64,000 nt of DNA, taken from Acidobacteriota bacterium. GTDB taxonomy: Bacteria; Acidobacteriota; Blastocatellia; UBA7656. Numbering within the stretch: position 1 is the first letter of the stretch; the number at the start of each line of letters is the position of its first letter. The position numbers were made by a program, and so were the translations under genes. The stretch is taken from assembly GCA_040754075.1 (NCBI GenBank), contig JBFMDH010000003.1:14307-78306 (forward strand). Reading direction: 5' to 3'. Positions 2,519 through 50,800 of the stretch are shown here, one piece after another. The notes beneath the pieces were generated by a model that saw only the letters and a program-made list of their open reading frames with translations, made no database searches and was not told the DNA's origin.

Positions 2519-3625
2519 TTATGGTTGTTGCGCCAGGGCTTTAACGCGCTCGATGCTTTGTTTAATCGTCGGGTCGTTGGTCACGGAATAGGCTTTCTCG
2601 TAAATTCGCAAAGCCTGTTGATACTGTTTATCGCTTTCGTAGATGTAGGCGAGTTCAGACATTGCCGCCACCGAATCGGGAATTAATTGAATAGTGATTT
2701 CCAGCGCTTCCATCGCTTTGCGCGTCTTGCCGCTACGCGAAAGGGCGATGCCATAATAGAGCCATGCCTGCCCGTTATCGGTGTTTTCTTTCGCGAGTTT
2801 TTCGAGCGGGACAATCGCTTTCTCGAAATTTTTTGCGCCAAGATAGGCGCGCCCTAAAATGTTGGCGGTCTTTAGGTCATCACGCGCCGCCTGCAATTGT
2901 TCTGCGACGCTTGCCGCTTCATTCCACAAGGCATTTGCGGCACTCACGTTTGCGCCGAGCTTACGGGCTTTTCGCATTAAACTTTCGGCAAGCAATTCAA
3001 GCGCGTTGGCGTCTTCCGCATTCGCCTTTATCGCTTCACGAAAAGCCGGAATGGCGCGGTCATCATCCTCTCTCTTGAAATACATCAAGCCAAGCAAGTA
3101 GGCATTGGTTCCCGCGTCTTTGGCATTTTCATTTTTAGTTGCCGCAAGCAAAGGCAAGGCTTCGTCGTAACGTTCAAGATAATAATAAGCGCGACCGAGA
3201 GCCGCGCGCGCGCTCGGGTCAACCTCGCGTTTGGCTTTGGTATTTAAATCAATGTAGCGTTTGAGCGGCTCAAGGGCTTTATCGTATTCGGCGAGCAGAT
3301 AATGCGATAGCCCTATGGTGTAGAATGCACCGGCAATATCCGGGCTTTGCGGCGATTGCACTTCGAGGAGTTCGATGGCGCGCGCAAGCGGCATGCCGAC
3401 TCGTTTGTAACGTTTTAAATTGAATTCGCAAAGCCCGATGTAGTACCAGGCGCCGGCAAGGTCTGGGCGCTCTAAAACGAGGTCTTGAAATTCACTGAGC
3501 GCGGCGCGATAGTCGCCTTTTTTATAGTAGGCGACGCCTCTGTCCCAATCGGCTGCAAGCGTGGAATTGACCAGGAGTAGCGTCAGTAAAATGACCGCTG
3601 AAAAACTTTTCACGAAGGATTGCAT
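2519..3625 (-). CDS. Secreted tetratricopeptide-repeat (TPR) protein
   Basis: Signal peptide MQSFVKSFSAVILLTLLLVNSTLAA followed by repeated W/Y-x-x-G-x-x-x-Y-x-x-A-L TPR units (AWYYIGLCEF, AFYTIGLSHY, AYLLGLMYF, AWLYYGIALS). An alternative upstream ATG is at 3670. Confidence 0.7.
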   Translation of the reverse strand: MQSFVKSFSAVILLTLLLVNSTLAADWDRGVAYYKKGDYRAALSEFQDLVLERPDLAGAWYYIGLCEFNLKRYKRVGMPLARAIELLEVQSPQSPDIAGAFYTIGLSHYLLAEYDKALEPLKRYIDLNTKAKREVDPSARAALGRAYYYLERYDEALPLLAATKNENAKDAGTNAYLLGLMYFKREDDDRAIPAFREAIKANAEDANALELLAESLMRKARKLGANVSAANALWNEAASVAEQLQAARDDLKTANILGRAYLGAKNFEKAIVPLEKLAKENTDNGQAWLYYGIALSRSGKTRKAMEALEITIQLIPDSVAAMSELAYIYESDKQYQQALRIYEKAYSVTNDPTIKQSIERVKALAQQP

Positions 3626-27548: not shown

Positions 27549-28562
27549 CTATTCAATCAACGCTTCAATGACCCGAATCTTTTCGGCAAGCGTGCCCGCA
27601 TTTGGAATCGGCACCAGTGGCAGCGTCGCGCCGTATTGCAAAACTTCATCGAGTTGAGCGCGGCAAAATTCCATCGTTCCGCAAATCGCCACGGCATCAA
27701 CCATTGCATCGCTCACCGCGTTAATCGCTTCTTTGCGCCGACCCATTTGCCAGAGGGTTTGAATTTGCCCGGCAACATCGGCAAACCCCAGACGCGCAAG
27801 CGATTCTTTATAAAAATCGCCCATTCCGCCGACATAATAGGCAAGCGGCAAGCGCGCCGCTTTTCTTGCGCTCGCCGCATCATCGGAAACCATAGTGTTA
27901 ATGAAAGGCGCGATGTCGATTTGCTTGACGTCACGACCTGCTGCTTCACAACCTTTTTGAATTTCGACAATGCCTTCGTTGAACTGCGTGCGCGCCCAGT
28001 GCGTGGGCAACCAACCGTCGGCGATTTCGCCGATTTGACGAAGGCTTTTCGGCGTCAGCGCAGCAATGTATATCGGCAAATCTGCCCTTACGGGTTTAAA
28101 TCCAAGCTTGAATCGTTGCAACTGAAAACACTCACCCTCGAAATCCGTCACTTCACCTGCGAGCAACAAACGAATGATTTGAATGGTTTCTTTGAGGCGC
28201 GTGAGTGGTTTTTGGAATGGCACGCCGTGAAAATCTTCGATGACGCGCGCCCCGCTGGTTCCAAGTCCCAGGCGAAATCGCCCGCCGGAAATTTCATCAA
28301 GGGTTGCGGCGCTCATCGCCAGCACCGCAGGGGTTCGCGAAAACACATTGACGATGCCTGTGCATAAATGGATTTGTTTGGTATGAACCGCGAGTTCCGT
28401 GAGTGTCGTAAAGGCATCGCGTTCCCAGGCTTCGGGAATCCAGATGCAGTCGTATCCGCAACCATCTGCGGCTTTCACACATTCAATGAGTTCGCGACGG
28501 TCGAAGCCGCTTTTATCAAAACCAGGCAAGCGTCCAAGATAGAGTCCAAGTCTTCGCGTCAT
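27549..28562 (-). CDS. LLM-class (luciferase-like) flavin/F420-dependent oxidoreductase
   Basis: MTRRLGLYLG... TIM-barrel LLM fold motifs (GYDCIWIPEAW, GGRFRLGLGTSG). An alternative upstream ATG at 28652 would add 30 aa. Confidence 0.6.
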   Translation of the reverse strand: MTRRLGLYLGRLPGFDKSGFDRRELIECVKAADGCGYDCIWIPEAWERDAFTTLTELAVHTKQIHLCTGIVNVFSRTPAVLAMSAATLDEISGGRFRLGLGTSGARVIEDFHGVPFQKPLTRLKETIQIIRLLLAGEVTDFEGECFQLQRFKLGFKPVRADLPIYIAALTPKSLRQIGEIADGWLPTHWARTQFNEGIVEIQKGCEAAGRDVKQIDIAPFINTMVSDDAASARKAARLPLAYYVGGMGDFYKESLARLGFADVAGQIQTLWQMGRRKEAINAVSDAMVDAVAICGTMEFCRAQLDEVLQYGATLPLVPIPNAGTLAEKIRVIEALIE

Positions 28563-28783
28563 CGTTTGCACATTAAACCGAAAACCCGCGATGCGGTAAA
28601 GTCGTGATGAAGGCGTGGCAGATTCGCGCCTTGTTTTAAAAATATTTTTCATTTCGTTTTGCTGATTTCATTAGCAGTTACCTGCAACCAAAGAAAAATT
28701 GAATGAAGTATAAAAATAACTTTCTTGACTCTGATAAAACCGGAATGCTATACCATAAGCGTTTGATAAACAGTCAAAGGCTT

Positions 28784-28870
28784 ATGAAAAAAACCATGTG
28801 TTCAATGTGTTGTTGTTGTTGCATGTGTCGCGGACGAGCGCGCGAAGCCTTTGATGGAGGTGCATCATAA
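28784..28870 (+). CDS. Polycysteine leader peptide (MKKTMCSMCCCCCMCRGRAREAFDGGAS), candidate cysteine-sensing attenuator ORF
   Basis: Seven Cys codons (TGT/TGC) in a 28-codon uORF, including five consecutive. It lies 125 nt upstream of cobA-cysH-cysC-sir. In-frame alternative starts are at 28796 and 28805. Confidence 0.55.
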   Translation: MKKTMCSMCCCCCMCRGRAREAFDGGAS

Positions 28871-28918
28871 ATTAAGTTCTACTAAATTCTGAGTAAACTC
28901 AGAAGGAATTTAAGAAAA

Positions 28919-28960
28919 CCCACCACAGGCTTCAAAACCTGCGGTGGGTTTTTCGTTTTT
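28919..28960 (+). promoter_or_regulatory. Intrinsic terminator (attenuator) between the Cys-leader and cobA
   Basis: CCCACCACAGG-cttcaaaa-CCTGCGGTGGG followed by TTTTTCGTTTTT, 37 nt before the cobA ATG. A second small hairpin TTCTGAG-taaa-CTCAGAA sits at 28876-28893. Confidence 0.55.
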
Positions 28961-28996
28961 GGGCAAATTATTTTAGCGGGTAACAGGCACACAACA

Positions 28997-29800
28997 ATGA
29001 GCAACAGGCAGGCACACACCGGCAAAGTCTATTTAATCGGCGCAGGTCCGGGCGATGCGAAACTCCTGACCATCAAAGCCGCCGAGAGTATCGCCGTAAG
29101 CGAGGTTATCGTTTACGACTATCTGGTTAATCCCGAAATCCTGGCGCACTCGCGACGCGGCGCAGAATTGATTTACGTCGGCAAACGCGCCGGTGAACCT
29201 TCCATCTCGCAAACTCAAATTAATCAAATCCTCATCGCACACGCCCGCGCCGGAAAAATCGTTTCGCGTCTCAAAGGCGGCGACCCGTTCATCTTCGGAC
29301 GCGGCGGCGAAGAGGCTGAAGCCCTGGTTGAAGCCGGTATCGCCTGGGAAGTTGTGCCGGGAATTTCGTCGGGCGTTGCCGCTGCGGCTTACGCAGGGAT
29401 ACCACTAACGCATCGCAACTATGCTTCAAGCGTTGCTTTCATCACCGGGCACGACAGCCGCAAAAATCGCCCTGCTGTCGACTGGCAAGCCGCTGCGAAT
29501 TTAGCCGACACCCTGGTGATTTTTATGTGCGCCGAAACCATTAAACAGATTGCCCGCGCGCTCGTTGCCGGCGGGCGCGCGCCGTCAACGCCGATTGCCA
29601 TCATTCGCTGGGGAACTTACGCGCATCAGGAAGTCTATGCGGGAAAGCTCGCAGATTTGGCGAATGATGACGGCGAATTTTTAGACATCAAGCCACCGGC
29701 GATTGCCATTGTTGGCGAGGTGGTCGCGCTCAAAGAAAAATTGAACTGGTTCCATCATCAGGTCTTTGAATTTGGACTAGCCGAGGTTGCAGGTTTTTGA
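28997..29800 (+). CDS. cobA: Uroporphyrinogen-III C-methyltransferase (siroheme synthesis)
   Basis: VYLIGAGPGDAKLLTIKA...GKIVSRLKGGDPFIFGRGGEE matches the SUMT (tetrapyrrole methylase) signature. Confidence 0.85.
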   Translation: MSNRQAHTGKVYLIGAGPGDAKLLTIKAAESIAVSEVIVYDYLVNPEILAHSRRGAELIYVGKRAGEPSISQTQINQILIAHARAGKIVSRLKGGDPFIFGRGGEEAEALVEAGIAWEVVPGISSGVAAAAYAGIPLTHRNYASSVAFITGHDSRKNRPAVDWQAAANLADTLVIFMCAETIKQIARALVAGGRAPSTPIAIIRWGTYAHQEVYAGKLADLANDDGEFLDIKPPAIAIVGEVVALKEKLNWFHHQVFEFGLAEVAGF

Positions 29801-29812
29801 AAGGAGAACGTC

Positions 29813-30541
29813 ATGGCGCAAGCGAAAAATCAACTCATCAACTTGACTCCAAATCACACCATGCTTACGCGCATCAGAAATGCCGCGGCGCTTTTTGAAA
29901 ATGCCGCGCCAACGGAAATTTTAGAATGGGCATTCAAACAATACGGCGACAAACTGACGATTGCCACAGGATTCGGTGTCGAAGGCATGGCGCTCATCGA
30001 CATCGCCGTAAAAATCAATCCGCAATTAAATGTGTTTTTTCTCGACACCGATTTTCTTTTTCCCGAAACTTACGCGCTGCGCGAAATCATCGAGGAACGC
30101 TATCAAATAAAAATTCAAGCTTACAAAACTGAACTGACGCCCGAAACTCAGGAAGAAATTTATGGCGCAAAGCTCTGGGCGCGTGACCCGGATTTATGTT
30201 GCCGACTAAGAAAACTTGAACCGCTCAAACAAGCCCTGCGCGATAAACTTGCCTGGGTCACTGCCATTCGCCGCGACCAGACGGCGACGCGCGCCAGTGC
30301 CCGCGTTGTCGAATGGGACGCGCGCTGGCAGTTGGTCAAAATCAATCCGCTGGCGCGCTGGACGAAGCGCGATGTGTGGAGCTATGTCGTTAGAAACCAT
30401 GTCCCCTATAACCCTCTCCATAACGAAGGCTTCACCAGCATCGGCTGTACCCATTGCACGCGCTTCGTCCGCGTCGGCGAAGAGGAACGCGCCGGTCGCT
30501 GGGCAGGACACGCGAAAACCGAATGCGGATTGCACGCCTAA
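29813..30541 (+). CDS. cysH: Adenylylsulfate/phosphoadenylylsulfate reductase, thioredoxin-dependent
   Basis: PAPS-reductase fold with the C-terminal ECGLH motif and the CC...CxxC cysteines of [4Fe-4S] APS reductases (CCRLRK...CTHCT). Confidence 0.8.
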   Translation: MAQAKNQLINLTPNHTMLTRIRNAAALFENAAPTEILEWAFKQYGDKLTIATGFGVEGMALIDIAVKINPQLNVFFLDTDFLFPETYALREIIEERYQIKIQAYKTELTPETQEEIYGAKLWARDPDLCCRLRKLEPLKQALRDKLAWVTAIRRDQTATRASARVVEWDARWQLVKINPLARWTKRDVWSYVVRNHVPYNPLHNEGFTSIGCTHCTRFVRVGEEERAGRWAGHAKTECGLHA

Positions 30542-30581
30542 AAATCAACCACAACCAAATAAAGAAGAGGAGATTAAATAA

Positions 30582-31181
30582 ATGAGTTCACAAGGCAATG
30601 TCATCTGGCTTACCGGGCTTTCGGGCGCGGGGAAAACCACGCTCACACAGGTTCTCAGCAAACGCTTGCGCGCCGCAGGCAAACGAGTAGAAATACTCGA
30701 TGGCGATGAGGTGCGCGAAAATCTCAGTCGCGGTCTCGGGTTTTCAAAAGCTGACCGCGATACCAACATTCATCGCATCGGTTTCGTTGCGCGTCTGCTG
30801 GCGCGAAACGGCGTGACGGTCATTGTCCCGGCAATCTCGCCTTACCGGGAGACGCGCAGCGATGTGCGCGAGTTGATTGAAAGTGATGATGTCCGATTCG
30901 TTGAAATTTTTGTGCGCTGTGATTTACCGACCTTGATTGAACGCGACGTCAAAGGTCTCTACAAAAAAGCGCTTGCCGGTGAGGTGAAAAATTTTACAGG
31001 CATCAGCGACCCCTATGAAGAACCGCTCACCCCGGACATTTTAGTTGATACGGCGCGGCAAACCCTTGAACAAAGTGAAGTAATTATTATTGCGAGGCTT
31101 GGTGAACTCGGTTTGTTCAACGATTATGCCGCGTCCCTGAACCAGTTTGCTTTGACTGAAACGACAGCAGTTCAAGGCTAA
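30582..31181 (+). CDS. cysC: Adenylylsulfate (APS) kinase
   Basis: [15 protein letters not shown] P-loop and [27 protein letters not shown]-like motifs typical of APS kinase. Confidence 0.85.
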   Translation: [199 protein letters not shown]

Positions 31182-31300
31182 GGAAAAGTTCAAAGCGTTG
31201 CTTTCAGATTAAACTTTACACCACGATTCATTTTTCTCTGACGCAACGCTTTGAACCCGTTTTTCAAACGGCGCTTCACGCGCCTTATAGCAGGCAGTTT

Positions 31301-32914
31301 ATGAGCAATATCGAAGAGATTAAAAAACGCAAAGACGGGTTAGATGTGCTCGCGGATATTTACCGTTACGCGGCGACCCAGGAGACGATTTCGCCCGATG
31401 ATGAAGCGTTGTTTCGCTGGTATGGCATCTACACCCAACGACCCGCCGAAGATGGATTCTTTATGGTTCGCACACGCATACCGGGCGGCGATTTGACGCC
31501 AACGCAGTTGCGCGTATTAGCGGAACTTGCCGAACATCATGGTCGCGGGCTTGCCGATATTACGGTGCGTCAGAATATTCAATATCACTGGGTGCGGGTT
31601 GAGAGTTTGCCGATAATTCTTGATCGGTTGCGCGAAGTCGGGTTATCAACCACAGAAGCTTGCGGCGATTGTGTTCGCAATATTTTGAACTGTCCGGTGT
31701 CGGGCGTCGATAGCGAAGAACTCTATGACACCACGCCGCTCATCAAAGCGGTGAATGAATTTTTCATCGACAATAAAGATTTCTCAAACCTGCCGCGCAA
31801 ATTCAAAATCGCCATCACCGGCTGCGCCTACGCTTGCGTCTATCCCGAAATCAATGACATCGGCATTTTCGCAGTTCGTGATGAACAAGGCGAAGTCGCA
31901 TTTCGCGCCCGCGTTGGCGGCGGGTTGTCAACCACGCCGCGATTCTCGAAAGATTTGGGTGTGCTGGTCGCGCCCGATGAAGTGGTCGATTTATGCGCGG
32001 CGGTGGCGACGGTTTTTCGCGACGAAGGCAATCGCAAAAATCGCAAACGGGCGCGCTTGAAATTTTTAGTTGAAGAGTGGCAAATCCCGCGCTTTCGCGA
32101 AGCCGTTGAACGGGTGATGGGGCGAAAACTCCGTCGCGCCGCAACGCCTGAAGCCGAACCCATTCAAGAGCGCGACCGCTCGCATCTCGGCATCCACCGG
32201 CAACGCGAAAACGGCTTGTATTATGTGGGGATTTCGATACTCGGCGGCAGAACCAATGCTTGTGAACTCAGGCGGCTTGCCGATTTAGCTGAACAGTTTG
32301 GCAGCGGCAGAATCCGCACCACCAACACGCAAAATATTTTGCTGCTCGACATTCCCGAAAAAAATATATTGGCGCTCACACAGCAACTCGACCTCAGCGG
32401 TTTCGATTATCAACCGAACTGGGCGCGCAAAGGCATGATTGCCTGCACCGGCATTCAGTTTTGCAAACTGGCAATTGCCGAAACCAAAAATCGCGCGAAG
32501 CAATTGGATGAATACCTTTCCGAACATGTCGAACTCACGGACAGCGTGCGCATCAGCGTGACGGGTTGTCCGAACTCTTGCGGGCAACATCATATTTGCG
32601 ATGTTGGACTCGAAGGCTCGCTCGTGCAAATCGGCGGCGTGAAGAAAGAAGCTTTTCAAATCTTTTTAGGCGGCGGCGTCGGCAGACATGAATCCTTCGG
32701 CAGACGCATAGGGGTTCGCGTGCTTGCCGATGATTTGGGCGAATCGCTTGGACGGCTCTTTGCGCGTTATAACGATGAGCGCGTCGGGCAAGAAACCTTT
32801 CAGGAATTCTGTCTGCGTCACAGCGATGAAAAATTGACGGAATTTCTAGCGGCTTCACCCCCAACGATTAATCCATCGTGCGCCGCGATTGAATCCCAGC
32901 CTGCACCGGTTTGA
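31301..32914 (+). CDS. sir: Assimilatory sulfite reductase (ferredoxin-dependent, siroheme/[4Fe-4S] hemoprotein)
   Basis: Nitrite/sulfite reductase ferredoxin-like half-domains, with cluster/siroheme cysteines in TGCAYACVYPEINDIG and TGCPNSCGQHHICDVGL. Confidence 0.8.
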   Translation: MSNIEEIKKRKDGLDVLADIYRYAATQETISPDDEALFRWYGIYTQRPAEDGFFMVRTRIPGGDLTPTQLRVLAELAEHHGRGLADITVRQNIQYHWVRVESLPIILDRLREVGLSTTEACGDCVRNILNCPVSGVDSEELYDTTPLIKAVNEFFIDNKDFSNLPRKFKIAITGCAYACVYPEINDIGIFAVRDEQGEVAFRARVGGGLSTTPRFSKDLGVLVAPDEVVDLCAAVATVFRDEGNRKNRKRARLKFLVEEWQIPRFREAVERVMGRKLRRAATPEAEPIQERDRSHLGIHRQRENGLYYVGISILGGRTNACELRRLADLAEQFGSGRIRTTNTQNILLLDIPEKNILALTQQLDLSGFDYQPNWARKGMIACTGIQFCKLAIAETKNRAKQLDEYLSEHVELTDSVRISVTGCPNSCGQHHICDVGLEGSLVQIGGVKKEAFQIFLGGGVGRHESFGRRIGVRVLADDLGESLGRLFARYNDERVGQETFQEFCLRHSDEKLTEFLAASPPTINPSCAAIESQPAPV

Positions 32915-47839: not shown

Positions 47840-50800
47840 ATGAAAGACGATGTCCCTTTTAGGTTGCTCTATGATTCTCAATTTGAACACGACGCTTGCG
47901 GTGTAGGGTTTGTCGCGGATATTGCAGGAAATCCGAGTCATGCGCTGTTGGAAATTGCATTGCAGGCGCTCAATCATCTCGTGCATCGCGGCGCGATTGA
48001 TGCCGATGGCAAAACCGGCGATGGCGCAGGTGTGCTCACCCAACTGCCGAAAAAATTCTTTCAGAAAAAGATTGAAAAATTATGCGGCGCGCGACTTCAA
48101 GCGGAAGATATTGCCGTCGGCATGTTTTTTCTGCCGCAGGATGAAACCATTCGTGTCCGCTCGAAAAGCGCCATCAAACGCGCGCTCAAACAATACAACC
48201 TGGAATTTTTAGCCTGGCGCAATGTGCCCGTAGATAAAAACGCGCTGGGCACAAAAGCTGCTGAAACTTTGCCGCGCATCGAACAGGCTTTGATTGCGCG
48301 CGGCGACTGTCCGCTTACGGAATTTGAGTCAACCCTCTACCTGGTGCGCAAAGAGATTGAACGCCAGACCGCCAACCTCAAAGGCTTTTACACCGTTTCA
48401 CTGTCAAATCAAACCATCGTCTATAAAGGTTTGTTGGTTGCCTCGCAACTCAAAGCCTTTTACAAAGATTTAAGCGACGGGGATTTCGCTTCGGCAATCG
48501 TCGTCTTTCATCAACGCTATTCAACCAACACGTTTCCCAACTGGTCGCTCGCTCAACCGTTTCGCATGATTGCTCACAACGGCGAAATCAATACCATTGC
48601 CGGAAATCGCAACTGGATGCGAGCGCGTGAAGCCACCTTGAATTCACCTTTCTGGCAAGAACGCATCGAAAAACTCAAACCGGTCATCTGGTCTGCGGGG
48701 TCGGATTCGGCAAGTTTAGATAACACCGCCGAGTTATTGATTAAGAGCGGGCGCGATGTGCTGCAGTCGATGTTGATGTTGATGCCTGAAGCCTTTGAAA
48801 ACGCTCAGGGGATGAATGCCGATTTGCGCGGTTTTTATGATTATTCGGCGTGTTTGATGGAACCCTGGGACGGTCCGGCGGCGGTCGCCTTCAGCGATGG
48901 CAAAATCGTCGGCGCGCGATTAGACCGCAATGGACTGAGACCTGCGCGTTACGCCGTCACCAGTGATGGCTTGATGATTCTGACTTCCGAAGCCGGAGCT
49001 ATTGAACTCGCGCCGGAAACCATCGTCGAAAAAGGCAGACTTGCGCCCGGCGAAATGATTGCCGTGGATACGACGCGCGGCGTGGTCTTGGGCGATGAAG
49101 AAATCAAACGCGGGTGCGCGGCGCGCAAGCCCTATGCCGATTGGGTCAGAGACGGCTTTGTCGCCTGTCCCAGCATTGCCGATAACAACTGCACCGATGA
49201 TTTCAATGACCTCAGTTTAACCGAGCGCATGAAGGCTTATGGTTACACCCTTGAAGATGTGCAGCGCATCATCGACCCGATGTTTGAAGAAGGCAAAGAG
49301 CCTGTGGGTTCGATGGGCGACGATACGCCGCTTGCGGTTTTATCTGCGAAACCGCGAGTGCTTTATAACTATTTCAAACAGCGGTTCGCGCAGGTTACCA
49401 ATCCGGCGATTGACCCGATTCGCGAACGCGGCGTGATGTCTTTGGAAACCCTGCTTGGCGCAAGAGGCAGTTTGCTTGAAGAGCGCGCGGAGTTTGCCAA
49501 ACTGGTTAAATTGCATAGCCCGGTGATTACCAACAACGAGCTTGAATGGTTAAAAAACCTCGATAAACAGGGCTTTTCGGCGATAACTTTGAAAACGCTT
49601 TTTGAAGTAAAAAATGATCATGCCTGTTCAGAGATGGTTTCAGACCGCCAGGCAAGCGGTCAAAGATCGCTTCTCAACTCTAAGCCTGAGTTATCCGGTT
49701 CTTGCCTGGAAAACGCGCTTGATGAGTTATGCGCACAGGCAAGCGAAGCCGCCGACAAAGGCTACGCGATTTTAATTTTAAGCGATAAAGGCATAGATGA
49801 ATCACACGCGCCGATACCGATGTTGCTTGCCGTGTCGGCTGTGCATCATCACTTGATTCGCGAAGGCAAACGCCTGCGTGTCAGTCTGATTGCCGAAACT
49901 GCGGACGCCCGCGAAGACCATCACTTCGCCTGTTTGATGGGTTACGGAGCCAGCGCGGTGAATCCTTATCTGGCATTTGAAATCGTTGCCAACGAAGTTC
50001 AGCATCGCGGCATGAGCACACCGGCGGCGCTCAAAAATTACAAGACCGCGGTTGAAAACGGCTTGTTGAAAATCTTGGCGAAAATGGGCATCGCGACGAT
50101 TGCCAGTTACAGCGGCGCGCAGATTTTTGAAGCCATCGGCGTCGGCGACCGGTTGATTGAAAAATATTTTACCGGCACACCTTCACGCATCGGCGGCATC
50201 ACGCTTCGCGAAATCGCCGGAGACGGGTTGCAATTTCACGCCTCGGCATTTGCCGTAAAAGATAAACAGCAACTCGATGATGCAGGCTATTATCGCTATC
50301 GCGCGGGCGGCGAATTTCACACCTTCAATCCGCAGGTCTTTCGATTGTTGCATAAATTCGCGAGAGCCGGTGATGAAGAAGCCTTCAAAAAATTCGCTGC
50401 CCAAATCGATACGCGCGCGCCGGCGGCGCTTCGCGACTTGCTGGAATTTCGCAAAGGCGAAAGCATCGCGCTCGATGAAATCGAAGCCGCAGAAAATATC
50501 GTGCGGCGGTTTTCGATTTCCGCCATGTCGCTTGGCGCATTATCGCCCGAAGCCCATGAAACTTTAGCGATTGCCATGAATCGCCTTGGCGCAAAGAGCA
50601 ACAGCGGCGAAGGCGGCGAATCGCCCGCGCGTTATCGTCCGCGCGAAGATGGCGACTCGGCAAACAGCCGCATCAAGCAAGTGGCTTCGGCAAGGTTTGG
50701 CGTGACGCCCGAATATCTGGTGAGCGCCGATGAACTCGAAATTAAAATCGCGCAGGGCGCAAAACCCGGCGAAGGCGGACAATTGCCCGGTCATAAAGTG

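Follow-up and report, generated by a model that had tools for sequence, protein, structure and literature searches.

The window analysed here, a 64-kb stretch of Blastocatellia DNA, carries on its forward strand a four-gene operon of assimilatory sulfate reduction, cobA-cysH-cysC-sir (28997..32914), the members of which are identified by matches to Pfam and NCBIfam models. The first gene, cobA (28997-29800), encodes a TP_methylase domain protein of the uroporphyrinogen-III C-methyltransferase type, i.e. a siroheme methyltransferase; it is followed by cysH (29813-30541), which codes for a (P)APS reductase with the PAPS_reduct domain, cysC (30582-31181), which codes for an APS kinase, and sir (31301-32914), the product of which is a NirA-type sulfite reductase with the NIR_SIR domain. 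This gene order is identical in all homologous loci. An operon of this composition supplies sulfide for cysteine synthesis and is hence suited to control by a system that senses cysteine. The first-pass annotation, which was made from the letters of the window alone, had named the same four genes and had remarked that no ATP sulfurylase is encoded among them. The gene assignments hold, and the absence of the Sat-type ATP sulfurylase is found by tblastn to apply to the entire window. As a check on a wider regulon, the lengths of the contigs that bear Sat homologues were also set against those of the cobA loci, and no two coincided. The divergent gene upstream of the leader described below codes for an F420-type luciferase-like oxidoreductase, and not for an SsuD-type sulfonate monooxygenase; no connection with sulfur is evident for it.

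Ahead of cobA lies a short upstream ORF (uORF) on the same strand (28784..28870), which extends from an ATG at 28784 to a TAA at 28868-28870 and has 28 codons before the stop, with the predicted product MKKTMCSMCCCCCMCRGRAREAFDGGAS. Its delineation is supported by a conserved start context, AAGGCUU-AUG, and a conserved reading frame. Seven of its codons specify Cys, namely codon 6 (28799-28801), codons 9-13 (28808-28822) and codon 15 (28826-28828), of which five are consecutive; it is thus a short ORF upstream of sulfur genes with at least two adjacent Cys codons. Nowhere else in the 64-kb window, on either strand or in any frame, do five or more TGY codons stand in a row; given its base composition, the expected number of such runs is about 0.004. 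Two further ORFs were considered and set aside. A 55-codon ORF from an ATG at 28703 begins 5' of the conserved promoter and lacks conservation, and we prefer the ATG at 28784. A second Cys-rich short ORF in the window (49797-49853) is out of frame within an ORF of 1540 aa and can be attributed to chance.

To define the range of the leader, we collected cobA loci from species-representative genomes and JGI metagenomes, and retrieved others by looking up exact proteins among the CobA homologues. All 16 loci with CobA proteins 68-83% identical to that of the window (L001, L002, L081, L161-L172 and the window itself) have the leader, in 13 distinct sequences, that of the window included; it is absent from the 157 loci in which CobA is at most 59% identical. 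A nhmmer profile of the 13 leaders recovers its members with E values of 1e-42 to 1e-50 and has zero matches in those 157 loci. As the profile matches nothing beyond the close relatives of this CobA, the leader is specific to one clade of Blastocatellia. Its other bearers are MAGs of Blastocatellia (Acidobacteriota) along with contigs from soil metagenomes, and the CobA of the window has an identical counterpart in an Acidobacteriota MAG. The clade is well represented in soil metagenomes, as the protein collection has at least 120 CobA clusters with 66% or higher identity to the window protein, all of the best 120 clusters reaching this value. The comparison of orthologous loci that had been proposed as a check on the uORF thus comes out in its favour, with a Cys-rich uORF, its Shine-Dalgarno (SD) sequence, an ATG and a terminator preceding cobA in every close relative collected.

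The homologous uORFs have 28-34 codons, with 3-7 in-frame Cys codons that lie between codons 6 and 15 in the 13 distinct sequences; the fewest, three each, are seen in L168 and L172. Cys is the sole amino acid kept among the peptides, the remainder of which is variable. Both Cys codons are used across the 13 leaders (TGT 57 times, TGC 13 times), the indels inside the Cys region come in multiples of three, and the alternative frames have few Cys codons or none. The retention of Cys alone in the peptide, the mixture of TGT and TGC and the triplet indels together indicate that these codons are selected as codons. The start context AAGGCUU-AUG, in which only 3 nt separate AAGG from the AUG, is common to the homologues with the exception of L165, which has GAGGA-N8-AUG instead. 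This signature of translation is kept in all 13 homologues, and the uORF is accordingly predicted to be translated. A search of the flanks of the homologous loci brought up no additional Cys leader.

Upstream of the uORF we predict a sigma-70-type promoter (28725..28754, forward strand), which consists of a -35 box TTGACT (28725-28730), an 18-nt spacer and an extended -10 box TGcTATACC (28746-28754). The -35 element TTGAC(T/G/C) is found at a constant distance from the uORF in 13 of 13 distinct homologues. The -10 box has the form TATAnn in 10 of the 13, being TATTCT in L002 and TAAGGT in L168 and L171, and the TGn extension ahead of it is likewise present in 10 of the 13. From these elements transcription would be expected to start near 28761, about 22 nt before the AUG of the uORF.

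Between the uORF and cobA lies an intrinsic terminator (28914..28960, forward strand), in which a stem formed by 28914-28929 and 28938-28953 encloses an 8-nt loop and is followed by a U run. The core arms of this stem are CCCACCACAGG (28919-28929) and CCTGCGGTGGG (28938-28948), with one A.C mismatch; together with the A/U extension (28914-28953) they form 15 bp with a folding energy of -22.2 kcal/mol. The T run TTTTTCGTTTTT occupies 28949-28960 and its end is 36 nt before the cobA ATG at 28997. The terminator is kept in all homologues (95.1% paired, 5 covarying pairs) at a distance of 9-48 nt from cobA on the same strand. Between the uORF stop and the terminator, MFE folds place a spacer hairpin (28872..28913, forward strand; -12.2 kcal/mol), with an inner part of 7 bp at 28887-28904 that is lengthened by the pairing of 28872-28880 with 28905-28913. 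Spacer hairpins of the CUGAG/CUCAG kind recur in most homologues, in a region that aligns poorly. The RNA fold of 28760-29010 is far more stable than its shuffled controls (z = -4.5). The architecture reported in the first-pass annotation is therefore borne out: it had described a 28-codon uORF with seven Cys codons, five of them consecutive, which is present in the sequence as stated, and after it a small hairpin and a strong terminator before cobA, which correspond to the inner hairpin at 28887-28904 and to the -22.2 kcal/mol stem with its U run. A simple consensus scan for promoters and terminators reported neither at the leader, since the mismatch beside the 4-bp top of the stem and the -10 box TATACC, with its final C, breach the rules of the scan; the thermodynamic fold and the conservation of these elements override this negative.

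When the 13 leaders are submitted to RNAalifold without guidance, three helices are predicted: a long-range helix that we term 1:2, a hairpin that we term P, and the terminator. Segment 1 (28773..28783, forward strand; GUCAAAGGCUU) is the SD-containing end of the 5'UTR right before the start codon of the uORF, and would act as the anti-antiterminator strand. Segment 2 (28845..28857, forward strand; AAGCCUUUGAUGG) is the putative switch strand, which can pair either with segment 1, through 28845-28855, or with the 5' arm of the terminator, through 28847-28857. Hairpin P (28828..28845, forward strand) has the arms (U)CGCG and CGCG(A), closes an 8-nt loop and stands directly after the last Cys codon. 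Taken together, the three helices comprise 28 pairs, in which 92.6% of the cells are standard pairs and 14 of the 28 pairs are changed on both sides; 0 of 500 shuffles reach these values and slid registers are only 36-46% paired. Helix 1:2 itself (28773-28783 with 28845-28855), which RNAalifold predicts independently and which is also present in the MFE fold of the window leader, is 90.8% paired with 4 covarying pairs. For hairpin P covariation extends to 5 of its 7 pairs: the sequence differs by subgroup (GCGCGCC/GGCGCGC, GUAUGCC/GGCAUAC, GUACGC/GGCGUAC and others) and the hairpin is present in every homologue; read by eye, the alignment of the 13 sequences has it beginning 0-2 nt past the last Cys codon. 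The version of P in the window is the weakest, at -7.6 kcal/mol. The most conserved stretch of the leader is the block AGCCUUUGAUGGAGG (variant AGCCUUUAGUGGAGG), which is read in frame 0 in seven homologues, as AFDGG, and in frame 2 in six, as (E/K)PLVE. A block that is read in two frames is conserved as RNA and not as peptide. The naked window leader, folded from its predicted 5' end, contains 1:2, P, the spacer hairpin and the terminator, with a total of -66.5 kcal/mol; since this is the terminated state, the default of the leader is termination.

Segments 3 (28919-28930) and 4 (28937-28948) lie within the terminator, and their pairing, 3:4, is the terminator stem. The alternative pairing 2:3 joins GCCUUUGAUGG (28847-28857) to CCACCACAGGC (28920-28930) and uses nearly all of the 5' arm of the terminator. 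This is at odds with the first-pass annotation, in which no convincing antiterminator could be recognised by eye, and the reason for the oversight is likely that 2:3 is at its weakest in the window's own subgroup, where it has 9 bp, two single mismatches and an energy of -10.8 kcal/mol. Across the homologues the 2:3 register has 81.1% of its cells paired, as against 23-61% in slid registers. One pair is A-U in six sequences and G-C in five, a compensatory change, and a second double change, from U.C to A-U, is shared by L167 and L169, members of different subgroups; the covariation of 2:3 is limited to these two positions, in related sequences. With segments 1 and 4 (the latter being the 3' arm of the terminator) removed, RNAalifold returns 2:3 as the sole consensus structure. 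MFE folding of the nascent transcript, begun after P and carried through segment 3, likewise includes 2:3 in 10 of the 13 leaders, that of the window among them. In 11 of the 13 leaders no upstream 16-nt stretch pairs better with the terminator 5' arm than segment 2 does; in the remaining two, segment 2 falls short of the best stretch by no more than 0.4 kcal/mol. The alternative folding that the first-pass annotation had called for, carried out by MFE and RNAalifold, hence gives 1:2, P, the terminator and 2:3. These models indicate that an antiterminator which is mutually exclusive with the terminator exists. The spacer hairpin, in the antiterminated fold, would sit inside the loop that is closed by 2:3.

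Helices 1:2 and 2:3 share 9 nt of segment 2. The uORF stop codon lies 7-20 nt past segment 2 in the homologues. The mean energies are -24.8 kcal/mol for the terminator, -16.7 kcal/mol for 1:2 and -13.5 kcal/mol for 2:3, an order that fits an attenuator that is off by default and in which the antiterminator wins only kinetically. An additional pairing, of the freed 3' arm of P with the loop or 3' arm of the terminator, was considered and rejected: GCGCC-type complementarity of this sort is apparent by eye in only 4 of the 13 leaders.

By computation, then, the leader has all the elements of an attenuator: a leader ORF, cognate codons, an intrinsic terminator, an antiterminator and an anti-antiterminator. 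We consider it highly probable that it is a classical ribosome-mediated transcription attenuator which senses charged tRNA-Cys and controls cobA-cysH-cysC-sir, the operon most likely being switched on when cysteine is short. Some features weigh against this reading: 2:3 is weak in the window's own subgroup and covaries at two positions of related sequences, AAGG stands only 3 nt from the AUG, and L168 and L172 have no more than three Cys codons. In the mechanism that we propose, transcription would begin about 22 nt ahead of the uORF and the RNA would pass through three mutually exclusive pairings, 1:2, 2:3 and 3:4. When cysteine is plentiful, a ribosome running to the stop codon would cover segment 2, or segment 1 would capture segment 2; if the uORF is not translated, segment 2 would likewise be unavailable. 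With segment 2 unavailable, the terminator would form and RNA polymerase would stop at the U run that precedes cobA by 36 nt. Under a shortage of Cys-tRNA the ribosome would stall in the Cys run, at codons 6-15, where it would unwind hairpin P, which adjoins the last Cys codon, and occupy the 61-nt loop that 1:2 would otherwise close; a second ribosome would probably be held on the SD during the stall. Segment 2 would then be free until segment 3 is made, upon which 2:3 would form and RNA polymerase would read into the operon.

The details of this relay are held with less confidence than the function: we infer the stalling, and above all the way in which the stall blocks 1:2. If the ribosome is taken to cover about -15/+14 nt, then with its A site on codons 6-15 it stays clear of segment 1, which lies at -11 to -1 relative to the start codon. 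The stalled ribosome, in other words, does not physically mask segment 1. MFE folding, the results of which are noisy in this respect, is in keeping with this geometry: with the stall footprint alone masked, 1:2 persists in most homologues, and with both the footprint and segment 1 masked, 2:3 is formed in 7 of 13 nascent transcripts. In such footprint-masked folding 2:3 appears only when segment 1 is masked. As the stalled ribosome misses segment 1, the relay must be indirect, by the unwinding of P, by steric effects or by the queued ribosome.

Four other explanations can be weighed against this one with the same evidence. Translational attenuation of the mycobacterial type, in which the Cys tract, or a structure that involves it, would mask the ribosome-binding site of cobA and a stall on the Cys codons would unmask it, the terminator being non-regulatory, has an experimental precedent in the polycysteine sORFs of Mycobacterium smegmatis (10.1101/834739), and the MFE fold of 28760-29010 in the window indeed pairs the UGU run with the ACA-rich start region of cobA. 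We reject this long-range pairing as the mechanism because it is not conserved in the homologues: the complementarity between Cys tract and cobA start has z values against shuffles that range from -3.3 to +1.7 across the 13, with -1.2 for the window. Such a model also leaves unexplained the covarying terminator and the conserved antiterminator strand that lie between the uORF and cobA, and we regard it as very unlikely. Nor do we favour a structured leader RNA, either a riboswitch or a protein-binding element, that would control the terminator with the Cys codons being incidental. The fact that most of the conserved nucleotides are kept as RNA and not as peptide, and the covariation of the helices, would agree with it, but the helices are simple alternatives with neither a conserved junction nor a pocket, and in-frame Cys codons, SD and AUG are kept in 13 of 13 leaders despite nucleotide changes around them, with indels in multiples of three. 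Rfam gives no match at E values up to 10. The best score of any Rfam family in 28300-29300 is 22.9 bits, well short of the gathering score of 54, and nothing in the whole window attains a gathering score, the families searched including the His, Leu, Thr, Trp and Phe leaders, SAM riboswitches, the T-box and others. On these grounds such an RNA is equally improbable.

The uORF might alternatively encode a functional small Cys-rich peptide, for instance a metal- or redox-active one, the terminator merely ending a short transcript; it does have a predicted promoter, an SD and a terminator of its own. Against this stand the conservation of Cys alone, the variation in the number (3-7) and spacing of the Cys residues, the C-terminal half that is read in two frames in two subgroups, and the position of the unit, which invariably precedes cobA by 9-48 nt and shares its strand, so that we assign this explanation a slightly smaller chance still. 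The least probable of the four is Rho-dependent termination or polarity, with translation of the uORF shielding the transcript and the hairpin with its U run not being the regulated site. A Rho mechanism was proposed for the terminator-less actinobacterial Cys leaders (PMC1262725), and the first-pass annotation had put forward Rho or ribosome occupancy as alternatives when it lacked an antiterminator. In the present leaders a canonical intrinsic terminator covaries in all homologues and has a competing antiterminator. The 9-48 nt from terminator to cobA leave little space for a Rho loading site. With a covarying terminator and a predicted antiterminator at hand, neither Rho nor pure ribosome occupancy is needed. 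The ribosome-mediated attenuator thus remains our preferred explanation of the locus.

As such, the leader resembles those of the trp, his, leu, thr, ilv and pheA operons of E. coli and Salmonella: it has an SD-led ORF that is rich in codons of the pathway; it has mutually exclusive pairings 1:2, 2:3 and 3:4, with 3:4 being the intrinsic terminator; its RNA, if untranslated, is predicted to terminate by default; and the operon that it precedes makes the sensed amino acid or a precursor of it. It differs from them in that the amino acid sensed would be cysteine, the operon is one of assimilatory sulfate reduction and the organism belongs to the Acidobacteriota. It also differs in its layout, in which segment 1 is the SD/5'UTR of the uORF and does not overlap the regulatory codons; because of this, 1:2 encloses the whole sensing region together with hairpin P. 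There is no sequence homology between the classical leaders and the present one, and the Rfam leader families are unmatched.

The mycobacterial polycysteine leaders to which the first-pass annotation had appealed as an established precedent are functional analogues, in that there, too, a short upstream ORF with consecutive Cys codons responds to the supply of Cys-tRNA and governs operons of cysteine or sulfur metabolism, but they are a different device: the sORFs are leaderless, and the case examined acts on translation. For this group, Ms5788A and the 'Cys ribulon', the mechanism examined is that of a stalled ribosome which blocks a duplex sequestering the downstream ribosome-binding site (Canestrari et al., 2020; 10.1101/834739), and the authors contrast their translational mechanism explicitly with terminator-based attenuation (10.1101/834739). 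No intrinsic terminator takes part in that mechanism, whereas the present leader combines a 5'UTR with an SD, an intrinsic terminator and an antiterminator. With transcription predicted to begin some 22 nt ahead of the AUG, and with its conserved SD, it would not be leaderless, and the conserved downstream element is the terminator in place of a duplex sequestering the downstream ribosome-binding site. Leader peptides with Cys runs and without terminators had been predicted earlier in Actinobacteria (PMC1262725). A further comparison is offered by uORFC-8-2, which precedes cysS in Rhodobacterales and is predicted to be a ribosome-mediated attenuator with a Cys uORF, a terminator stem and a U run (Brewer et al., 2021; PMC8632094). 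In this alphaproteobacterial leader, codons 14 and 15 form a tandem Cys pair inside the first stem (PMC8632094). By its description it is set apart from the present leader, as it controls a cysteinyl-tRNA synthetase while cobA is downstream here, and as the Cys run of the Blastocatellia leader is 5' of hairpin P and outside any conserved stem. Attenuators have also been predicted in Acidobacteria in a survey, almost all of them without an assigned function (PMC2965389). In the literature, which our search covered incompletely, we found no Cys leader in Acidobacteria or before sulfate-assimilation operons of the cobA/cysH type. Sensing through Cys codons is so far documented in Actinobacteria, in translational or terminator-less form, and in Rhodobacterales ahead of cysS. 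To these the present locus would add a full terminator/antiterminator Cys attenuator for a biosynthetic operon.

Acidobacteriota are a dominant and poorly cultured phylum of soils, and to our knowledge essentially nothing is known of how sulfur assimilation is controlled in them. The leader offers a concrete candidate for a cis-regulator of the operon that converts sulfate to sulfide in a soil clade of Blastocatellia. Its unusual layout, with its own Shine-Dalgarno sequence as segment 1 and a hairpin abutting the last Cys codon, poses the question of how a stall is relayed to the terminator. With a length of about 200 nt, it might also serve as a compact cysteine-responsive expression switch.

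We further raise, as a tentative and rather doubtful proposal, that the cysteine regulon of Blastocatellia is built from at least two unrelated designs of polycysteine leader. The first would be the present attenuator, its switch being set by ribosome traffic, i.e. by the stalled ribosome and a queued or initiating one, and not by the masking of segment 1. If the proposal is true, the sensing of cysteine by leader ORFs arose repeatedly outside Actinobacteria. The second design is seen in other Blastocatellales: ahead of sat-cysC-cobA-sirC-cysH lies an sORF of 47-50 codons that ends in CCCC(C)R-stop and has no terminator. By analogy with mycobacteria, a CUCCU stretch beside its Cys run may serve to hide the Shine-Dalgarno sequence that lies downstream.

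A second type of polycysteine sORF, unrelated to the leader upstream of cobA-cysH-cysC-sir in the window, was found in other Blastocatellales. These sORFs, 47-50 codons in length, are seen in three loci (L004, 1457-1600; L173, 3345-3487; L174, about 3391-3542) and are characterized by C-termini of the form ...TTCSCCCC(C)R* or ...KQSCCCCCR*. They are preceded by a promoter of the form TTGACA-N17-TATAAAC/TATAAGC and are followed, 240-300 nt downstream, by a conserved ORF of 65-73 aa (M..KFEIADW...), which is directly adjoined by sat-cysC-cobA-sirC-cysH. No hairpin and U-run terminator was found after the sORF in any of the three loci. RNAalifold, run on the three sequences, predicts two pairings: that of the CUCCU just 5' of the Cys run with the Shine-Dalgarno sequence (AGGAG) preceding the downstream ORF, and that of the UGU run with a CCACAACAA stretch. 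Judged by this predicted pairing in only three sequences, the second type would resemble the mycobacterial translational design.

Within the window's own leader type, the most conserved block across the window (28845-28860) and its homologues corresponds to columns 109-124 of the leader alignment (A1). It is translated as AFDGG in one subgroup and as (E/K)PLVE in the other: these are two distinct reading frames of the same block, which arise because the subgroups differ in the length of the hairpin that starts 0-2 nt after the last Cys codon, and the difference, in nucleotides, is not divisible by three. In L169 (4001), L170 (2756) and L171 (4001), cobA is annotated as starting either 5' of the leader terminator or inside it, giving CobA proteins of 282-289 aa. 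Public gene calls thereby conceal part of the leader in these loci; the true starts are likely to lie 11-19 nt 3' of the U run (L169, 4052; L171, 4028).

Upstream of the leader, the divergent neighbour in the window (27549-28652, minus strand) is a luciferase-like, F420-type oxidoreductase. In the window's subgroup (L161-L164, L167) this gene and the leader are syntenic. The enzyme is not a sulfonate monooxygenase of the SsuD type, and hence it has no evident sulfur link. In certain other relatives, a PALP-family (cysteine-synthase-like) gene is found upstream of the leader, accompanied by a sigma-54 activator (L165, 1-997 and 1843-3465; L171, 1-1157 and 2054-3586) or a ThiS-like gene (L172, 337-1961). 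No Cys-rich leader was seen in these three PALP-gene regions; the genes themselves hint that the neighbourhood devoted to sulfur or cysteine may be larger.

In the operon, the window CysH (29813-30541) possesses the CC...CxxC motifs (CCRLRKLEPL, SIGCTHCT) that mark iron-sulfur APS-type reductases, despite the presence of an APS kinase in the same operon; NCBIfam places it between the PAPS- and APS-reductase models. One homologous locus, L001 (CAZTUB010000022.1), is labelled 'uncultured Clostridia bacterium'. It carries a Blastocatellia-type leader and operon, with a CobA 68% identical to that of the window, and probably owes its label to a mistake in binning or labelling.
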